DNA of 64,000 nt from Vampirovibrionaceae bacterium NZW_1234 (GCA_041697335.1 JBGUGD010000031.1:40566-104565), one strand, 5' to 3'; shown: positions 45,483 to 46,319, counted from the stretch's first letter. Notes: a model not told the origin generated them from the sequence alone. Numbers and translations are program-made.

Positions 45483-46319
45483 ATGACATACTTGCCAGCC
45501 GCCTACTATTACCCCCATTACCCAGCGTACTACTCGGGCTATGGTTCTTATGGTGTAACGCCGTTTCAGACGGCTTCTACATTCGTTGAAGCCCAGAAAC
45601 CCTCTCCGCCGGCAAAAGTTCGCAAAGGCCCCTATCCGCAAAGCCATGACGAATTTCATCACGTGACCCAATGTCCGTCTCTGACCATGAAGAATACGGC
45701 CTACATTCCGCGCAAGCAGAATGTTGAGTTGCCTCCACCCAAGAATCCTTTTGTTAACGGGATTTTCAGGTATGCCGGTTACTTAAACGAATTGGGCGAA
45801 GCCTTTGTTCATCCCATGCATGCCGCCTTTACCGCCATTAATCCAAAGTGGACCGGCATGGCCCATAAAGTGGTCGATGCCACCTATAAGGCCGTCTTTG
45901 CCTATACCTGTATGGATGCCGCCTATTCGGGCGCACAGGCTTACTTTAGAGCCCGACAAGATGGAAATAGTGAAAAGATGGCGGCCATGAAAGGACTCCA
46001 GGCCGGTGTCGGCCAAGGTATTTTCCAACTGCTTGCCAGCTATTATGTCCCGGCAGAAATTATCAAGCGCGTCTTTAACCCCATGGGAACAAAGCTGGGG
46101 ATGATGCTCGGAAAAACAAAGACCATGGGTACCGTAGGCGGAACGGCTCTCAGCCTCCTGGCCATCCCGCTGATGGTCAAGGTTGTGGATCCGCTCTCGG
46201 AAAAACTGGTCCATGCCCTGTGGACCAAACCCACCAATCGCTTTCTGGAACGACGCGACCAAGGAGAAGTGGCACGCTCGTTCCATGCCCCCCATAAAGC
46301 CAACGCAGCCGTTCTATAG
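45483..46319 (+). CDS. MTFP1/MTP18 (mitochondrial fission process protein 1) family homologue
   Basis: RYAGYLNELGEAF, YKAVFAYTCMDA, FQLLASYYVPAEIIKRV and TALSLLAIPLMVKVVD align in order with recalled MTP18 motifs. Confidence 0.8.
   Translation: MTYLPAAYYYPHYPAYYSGYGSYGVTPFQTASTFVEAQKPSPPAKVRKGPYPQSHDEFHHVTQCPSLTMKNTAYIPRKQNVELPPPKNPFVNGIFRYAGYLNELGEAFVHPMHAAFTAINPKWTGMAHKVVDATYKAVFAYTCMDAAYSGAQAYFRARQDGNSEKMAAMKGLQAGVGQGIFQLLASYYVPAEIIKRVFNPMGTKLGMMLGKTKTMGTVGGTALSLLAIPLMVKVVDPLSEKLVHALWTKPTNRFLERRDQGEVARSFHAPHKANAAVL

Follow-up and report, generated by a model that had tools for sequence, protein, structure and literature searches.

A deeply diverged bacterial member of the MTP18/MTFP1 family in Vampirovibrionaceae bacterium NZW_1234

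The window analysed here is a stretch of 64,000 nucleotides from Vampirovibrionaceae bacterium NZW_1234 (GCA_041697335.1, JBGUGD010000031.1:40566-104565); coordinates are counted from its first nucleotide unless another contig is named. At 45483..46319 on the plus strand lies an intronless open reading frame (ORF) with an ATG start that encodes 278 amino acids followed by a stop codon (protein P0001). An earlier note, made from the nucleotide sequence alone, had proposed that this ORF encodes a bacterial homologue of the eukaryotic mitochondrial protein MTFP1 (MTP18), citing four collinear blocks matched to human MTFP1. The Pfam family MTP18 (PF10558) aligns with residues 94-242 (45762..46208, plus strand) over profile positions 19-170 of 171 (E = 8.4e-8), scoring 32.8 bits against a curated cut-off of 25 in the scan of the window and 31.4 bits in a genome-wide scan; the domain start falls within two residues of the one given in the note (residue 96, nucleotide 45768). 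In a BLASTP alignment with MTFP1 of a mollusc (P0133), all four blocks are in register over 151 collinear residues with 26% identity (E = 5e-11). Profile-profile comparison (hhalign) of 12 bacterial with five eukaryotic sequences gave a probability of 99.96% and an E value of 4.3e-39 over 160 columns, covering positions 13-176 of the 177 in the eukaryotic profile, and in a look-up with a protein language model MTFP1 clusters accounted for 30 of the 30 matches, with a best score of 0.92. A scan of the protein against NCBIfam returned no family, and a sequence search of a copy of the PDB returned no match, the family having no solved structure there. The Pfam match, the profile-profile alignment and the AlphaFold models described next bear out the proposal, and these comparisons confirm that the window gene encodes a genuine, deeply diverged member of the MTP18/MTFP1 family.

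An AlphaFold model of the window protein was computed from an alignment of 70 sequences (mean predicted local distance difference test score, pLDDT, 81; predicted template modelling score, pTM, 0.69). It places helices at residues 89-92, 94-107, 109-119, 126-159, 164-209 and 213-268, with pLDDT above 90 in most of the core. The model of the mollusc protein (pLDDT 94.2) has helices at residues 17-20, 22-35, 42-68, 75-117 and 124-156, and at the BLASTP offsets the predicted helices of the two proteins correspond in order and boundaries, except for helix 109-119. By alignment and model, helix 1 (residues 94-107 and 109-119; 45762..45839, this and the following three on the plus strand) carries the motif R96-Y-x-G99-Y-x-N102-E103-x-G-E-A-F, and its second half lies in a 14-residue bacterial insertion. 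Hydropathy was considered as well for the other three: helix 2 (residues 126-159; 45858..45959) carries Y141 and D145 and is weakly hydrophobic; helix 3 (residues 164-209; 45972..46109) carries Q182, A185, S186 and P190 and has a hydrophobic core at about residues 175-195; helix 4 (residues 213-268; 46119..46286) carries I228, P229 and D236 and contains the strongest hydrophobic segment of the protein, at residues 221-234.

D236 is invariant among the 70 bacterial and eukaryotic sequences, and R96, G99, N102, E103, Y141, D145, Q182, A185, S186, P190 and P229 are each conserved in at least 90% of them. The window protein has all of the family motifs: RYxGYxNExGEAF, Y...D in helix 2, Q..AS...P in helix 3 and IP......D in helix 4. 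From this pattern of conservation, polar residues within otherwise apolar helices are the most conserved feature of the family. Kyte-Doolittle hydropathy of the window protein peaks near residue 185 (1.03) and at residues 221-234 (1.76), while helix 2 stays below the threshold; the peaks of helices 3 and 4 resemble those of the eukaryotic members, which have three moderate peaks. A Foldseek search of the model against the PDB found no match at E <= 0.001, and in a wide fold search with VIA the best hits were a designed helical bundle (Z 8.7) and helices of ABC transporters (Z about 7.5), both within the generic helical range of that tool.

The domain is preceded by a leader that the earlier note had described as 95 residues long, rich in tyrosine and proline, and disordered. 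Residues 1-95 include 15 prolines and 11 tyrosines; in the AlphaFold model secondary structure begins only at residue 89, and pLDDT is below 50 for residues 1-35, in agreement with that description. Composition, model, codon usage and the leaders of homologues together delimit a putatively disordered segment of residues 1-88 (45483..45746, plus strand). The sole gene call for this protein in the databases (P0002, 210 amino acids) begins at Met69 (45687..45689, plus strand), which leaves the leader outside the public gene model. Met69 is not favoured as the start, because both paralogues of the source genome and several homologues have similar leaders. The second copy in the genome (C34:224079-224756) has a leader of like composition; the leaders of 60 bacterial homologues have a median length of 83 residues (range 16-144) and contain 12.4% proline, seven of the 60 being clearly rich in tyrosine, compared with a median of 27.5 residues in 120 eukaryotic proteins. 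Codon usage in the leader is best in frame 1 of the six frames, weakly so (+0.092; core +0.377). Translation from Met1 is favoured by this indirect evidence of codon usage and of composition shared with paralogues and homologues. Among the 3651 ORFs of at least 150 codons in the genome, 23 hold a 40-residue stretch with at least seven tyrosines and at least six prolines, so the leader is not a signal specific to the MTP18-like family. The 23 include ORFs on contigs C13, C2, C30, C34, C7 and C10. Many of the stretches stand at the N terminus, with a hydrophobic segment following in at least six cases; the Tyr/Pro-rich leader appears to be a recurring architecture in the lineage of the source genome.

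The source genome is a metagenome assembly of 3.70 Mb in 41 contigs with an estimated completeness of 94.75%, and the MTP18-like gene is located 46 kb into a contig of more than 100 kb. As the earlier note had remarked, the gene lacks introns and is set among bacterial genes. Upstream, across a spacer of 200 bp in the window map (45283..45482), is a gene for a type I chorismate mutase (aroH, 44755..45282, plus strand; CM_1, E = 9.2e-38). The CM_1 domain covers only residues 59-175 of this GTG-started ORF of 175 amino acids, so its true start is probably later, probably at an internal methionine about 56 codons downstream of the listed GTG. Further upstream, on the minus strand at 41336..44681, Pfam matches identify a two-component pair of a histidine kinase (41336-43870) and an OmpR-type response regulator (43923-44681). 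Downstream are a hydrophobic ORF of 176 amino acids (46415..46945, plus strand) and an ORF of 300 amino acids (46962-47864, minus strand), neither of which matches Pfam or NCBIfam. A consensus scan found no sigma-70-like promoter site, and no terminator was placed after the gene.

Homologues of aroH, the response regulator, the 176-residue ORF and the 300-residue ORF were not found beside any other member of the family that was examined. In family f3, a sister family, five genomes (loci L021, L027, L037, L040 and L042) have an orthologue of the histidine kinase (55-61% identity) directly upstream of an MTP18-like gene, on the same strand and separated by 200-300 bp; in the window the kinase is 1.6 kb from the MTP18-like gene and divergent from it, with the response regulator and aroH between them. 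Flanking ORFs of family members match Pfam families in 21 of 29 cases, and the matches are mostly to housekeeping proteins (IPP transferase, AlaRS, UppS, Pth, MetH, EPSP synthase and others). Synteny is conserved within each MTP18-like subfamily and specific to it. Together with the results on secretion markers given below, this chromosomal setting fits a long-resident gene with a cell-autonomous role.

A profile built from 12 bacterial members (profile A2) was used to count relatives in samples of genomes. In the order Vampirovibrionales it matches 36 of the 49 genomes and 26 of the 30 genera, a single genome having as many as five matches; in a sample of the class it matches 44 of 151 genomes. 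The source genome has two matches, the second being a paralogue on the minus strand at C34:224079-224756 (about 277 amino acids, with a Tyr/Pro-rich leader of about 100). In a sample of the phylum, the profile matches 86 of 169 genomes of family f7, which belongs to another order of the class and has genomes of about 1.6-2.5 Mb, and none of the 231 genomes of all other families. Three ORFs of family f7 (L009-L011) match a mixed profile with E values of 8e-11 to 6.5e-15 and keep all four motifs; the members in this family are rich in lysine and asparagine and have an insert of about 140 amino acids between helices 3 and 4. The PF10558 model, built from eukaryotic sequences, is insensitive to the bacterial members, finding 17 of 61 relatives and matching four of the 401 genomes in the phylum sample.

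Among 1.84 billion representative proteins, phmmer found only 42 relatives at E <= 0.001, the best eukaryotic matches having E values of 2e-7 to 6e-4. Homologues that share their sequence with ORFs of related genomes bear the names Vampirovibrio sp. and Vampirovibrionales bacterium, which puts the source genome in the order Vampirovibrionales, among the non-photosynthetic relatives of cyanobacteria; all prokaryotic members with a taxonomic placement are in one class. A scan of genome contigs with a degenerate DNA motif returned three stretches, two of them true members in Vampirovibrio or Vampirovibrionales assemblies; the third, a chance match in an unrelated Pirellulaceae protein of 494 amino acids, was rejected. 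Because the DNA motif misses most members of the family, the scan is weak evidence that other phyla lack it. Several metagenomic subfamilies are without a close counterpart in the sampled genomes; for two of them, P0017 and P0024, nothing in the 49 genomes of the order exceeds 40% identity, a look-up of their origin gave 10 clusters without taxon names, and scans of metagenomes gave no relatives, apart from a partial match in one contig of 1 kb. The class-only distribution is what was found in the samples searched, not a proven restriction.

Two trees place the bacterial proteins relative to the eukaryotic ones. The first, made by a quick method with 59 bacterial and 33 eukaryotic sequences (after redundancy filtering from 66 and 120), has one branch that parts bacteria from eukaryotes with support of 91. 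For the second, which is unrooted and was made by a careful search on 94 sequences and 169 columns, five long-branch bacterial sequences were left out (P0015, P0033, P0043 and the ORFs of L033 and L043) and seven eukaryotes were added, an insect and Diplonema among them. A single split (97/97), present in 97% of 200 bootstrap trees, separates its 54 bacterial from its 40 eukaryotic sequences, in a eukaryotic sample skewed towards one clade (29 of 40) and without nameable green algae. The eukaryotic relatives named by the database are diatoms, Palpitomonas, a mollusc, an insect and Diplonema, and Andalucia is among the MTFP1-bearing eukaryotes named in PMC7050145. One eukaryote-type MTFP1 of 178 amino acids (P0020/P0044) comes from an assembly labelled 'archaeon'; it sits on a long branch beside Diplonema in the eukaryotic clade, its nearest relatives are about 39% identical, and it represents either a mis-binned eukaryotic contig or something more interesting.

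Given the single split, the window gene is not nested in any sampled eukaryote and is not a recent import from one. Of the two interpretations offered in the earlier note, the one supported is that of a bacterial relative informative about how the family arose: the protein belongs to a diverse, multi-copy clan in at least two orders of one class, and one well-supported branch sets this clan apart from all sampled eukaryotes. The other, a eukaryote-derived effector, is not supported, as discussed below. The window protein pairs with P0003 (98/89) within a clade of 17 bacterial sequences (99/100), and the partner of the second copy is an ORF in another genome of the same family (100/96); the nearest relative of each copy is a metagenomic sequence or lies in a genome of that family. 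The bacterial sequences radiate along long branches from an unresolved backbone. From sequence comparison, the pattern would be best explained by a family that is old, vertically inherited and repeatedly duplicated, in the non-photosynthetic cyanobacterial class to which Vampirovibrio belongs.

How this family came to be shared with eukaryotes allows two tentative answers. An early MTFP1 may have entered the ancestor of the class once from a eukaryote and then evolved fast, duplicated and taken on a bacterial function. This is a possibility to be taken seriously, though the balance is against it: MTFP1 is widespread in eukaryotes, the taxonomically placeable prokaryotic members all belong to one class and the single branch between the groups fits one transfer event, but no eukaryotic group is nearer to the bacteria than the others, the mean patristic distance among bacteria is much above that among eukaryotes (4.81 versus 1.94) and midpoint rooting places the root within the bacteria. 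The direction of transfer is not readable from a tree that has no root and in which substitution rates clearly differ between the two groups. Such a transfer would bear only on where the family came from and leaves room for the function proposed below. Held with still less confidence is the converse, that eukaryotic MTFP1 descends from the bacterial family, a Vampirovibrio-like, non-alphaproteobacterial donor having passed it on before the last eukaryotic common ancestor, and that the bacteria keep an ancestral, pre-mitochondrial membrane job; if this doubtful proposal were true, MTFP1 would not be a eukaryotic invention.

What the bacterial protein does may be approached through its eukaryotic relatives. 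In PMC9636241, MTFP1 is described as an inner-membrane protein that is not required for mitochondria to divide, limits the proton leak dependent on ANT and interacts with the permeability transition pore. According to a preprint (10.1101/2025.01.05.631328), it is recruited to prohibitin-rich subdomains of the inner membrane and acts downstream in peripheral fission. In short, MTFP1 is a non-enzymatic organiser of membrane assemblies. A differing account, in PMC12477198, of a 750-residue outer-membrane GTPase is a misfit with a protein of about 170 residues and was not used.

By homology, the window protein somewhat more probably than not belongs to the bacterium's own cytoplasmic membrane and organises or stabilises protein assemblies there without catalysis, as a member of an old, lineage-wide family with a disordered tail. 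Its membrane location, topology and function are drawn from sequence and predicted structure. It would be anchored mainly by helices 3 and 4; the four-helix MTP18 core would present a conserved polar set (R96, N102, E103, D145, Q182 and D236) for contact with a partner protein or a lipid head group; and the Pro/Tyr-rich tail of about 90 residues would reach into the cytoplasm as an interaction module. Its role, without catalysis, would then be to organise or stabilise membrane protein assemblies, as MTFP1 does in the mitochondrial inner membrane.

Several observations weigh against parts of this interpretation. The PF10558 score of the window protein exceeds the cut-off by 7.8 bits only, and of 28 homologues compared with the Pfam model, 11 pass the cut-off, eight match below it and nine do not match. 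Helix 2 is weakly hydrophobic and one segment alone exceeds 1.6 on the 19-residue Kyte-Doolittle scale, so an integral-membrane location is plausible and not proven; in addition, the predicted helices, at 34-56 residues, exceed the thickness of a bilayer. Among the flanking ORFs scanned, there is no conserved operon partner that would indicate a function. Several metagenomic subfamilies, P0017 and P0024 for example, lack a close counterpart in the 49 genomes of the order and leave the restriction to the class unproven. Finally, secreted effectors, too, typically form multi-copy, fast-diverging families whose members have disordered termini and variable inserts.

The earlier note had indeed suggested a eukaryote-derived effector acting on organelle membranes of a host or prey: the protein and its paralogues would be delivered into eukaryotic cells, insert into mitochondrial or other organelle membranes, mimic MTFP1 and disturb membrane integrity or dynamics. 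The idea is reasonable on its face, since the order includes Vampirovibrio chlorellavorus, a predator of Chlorella with a predicted type IV secretion system according to PMC4451040; the family is multi-copy and fast-diverging, with disordered N-terminal leaders and variable inserts, and its closest characterised relatives are organelle proteins. However, the family is also common in a second lineage with small genomes (86 of the 169 genomes of family f7), its genes lie among housekeeping genes in conserved synteny, the bacterial sequences are not nested in any sampled eukaryote, and the leader shares its composition with stretches in 23 of the 3651 long ORFs of the genome and is thus not family-specific. 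The source genome, at 94.75% completeness, has no match to the type IV and type VI secretion markers VirB4 (PF03135), VirD4 (PF02534), AAA_10 (PF12846) or TssC (PF05943). VirB4 is found in six of the 49 genomes of the order, all in one family, as against 36 with the MTP18-like family, so that 30 of the 36 carriers have no VirB4 match. An effector role is, on this evidence, unlikely.

The source genome does have two full-length FHIPEP (FlhA-type) genes (C2:99188-101164 and C32:11558-13534, both on the minus strand; loci L045-L048), and both lie in flagellar clusters, one ordered fliP-fliQ-fliR-flhB-flhA and the other with the gene between fliH and a FliI-type ATPase gene, next to fliF.

That the locus is a eukaryotic fragment mis-assembled or mis-binned into a bacterial genome is effectively refuted: the source is a 41-contig assembly from a metagenome, and mis-binning does occur, as the eukaryote-type MTFP1 labelled 'archaeon' indicates, but the intronless gene lies between bacterial genes 46 kb inside its contig, its codon usage is in line with the genome, homologues occur in 36 of 49 related genomes, some on contigs of 0.7 to 2.5 Mb, and both junctions are bridged by identical unitigs. 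These unitigs come from four public runs, representing at most two samples; they match the window sequence exactly and show no joints. Between them, 45150-45346, 45360-45539 and 45330-45603 lead from the end of aroH across the spacer into the start of the ORF, and 45726-46415 covers the ORF and its 3′ side. A chimera is thus not indicated, with the reservation that the four runs may include the source sample and the unitigs are then not independent support for the assembly.

Among the papers listed by full-text literature searches, judged by title or abstract, none concerns bacterial members of the MTFP1/MTP18 family, and the portions consulted of PMC7050145, PMC9636241 and the preprint 10.1101/2025.01.05.631328 describe MTFP1 in eukaryotes only. 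Automatic pipelines have already labelled two bacterial proteins, P0002 and P0003, with PF10558, so the match itself is visible in the databases. The window protein is, judging from its sequence, a bacterial variant of a known family, of interest for the evolution and the mechanism of MTFP1, a small and medically studied mitochondrial inner-membrane protein whose molecular mechanism is still unclear. A bacterial sister family offers many natural variants showing which residues matter, with the conserved polar set inside the helices, and a background without mitochondria-specific partners for studying what the fold does by itself. It makes the origin of MTFP1 answerable by a better-sampled, rooted phylogeny, and it is a further trait that separates the non-photosynthetic from the photosynthetic cyanobacterial relatives.

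Three known systems invite comparison. LncP of Legionella is a mitochondrial-carrier effector, a eukaryote-like protein of organelle membranes. Like the window protein, it is encoded by a bacterium and has mitochondrial inner-membrane proteins as its characterised relatives, and it illustrates the effector idea, a likeness that is not demonstrated; here, in contrast, inheritance appears vertical across the lineage, without nesting among eukaryotes and without a matching secretion system found. The 'hypothetical proteins' of Vampirovibrionales metagenome-assembled genomes (MBK8190572.1, which is P0012, and ORFs in L012 and L013) are members of the same family with the same core motifs and a Pro-rich leader; their identity with the window protein is 23-55%, the tree puts them in other subfamilies, and none is characterised or, in the literature searches made, discussed in print. 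Eukaryotic MTFP1/MTP18 is homologous over the whole domain, and is alike in the predicted order and boundaries of the helices and in the hydropathy of helices 3 and 4. It differs from the window protein in having mitochondria as its setting, the window protein belonging to a bacterium without them and to a separate bacterial clan outside the eukaryotic clade. The window protein also has a leader of about 90 residues (bacterial median 83, eukaryotic 27.5), an extra short helix after helix 1, in an insertion of 14 residues, a less hydrophobic helix 2, and phenylalanine in place of tryptophan before the conserved glutamine, and it lacks the eukaryotic 'IPG' of helix 3; some of its bacterial relatives have, between helices 3 and 4, inserts of up to about 140 amino acids. 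MTFP1's known partners (ANT, the DRP1/FIS1 pathway and MISO) are eukaryotic proteins. The conserved residues common to both sides of the split are R, G, N and E in helix 1, Y and D in helix 2, Q, A, S and P in helix 3, and P and D in helix 4.

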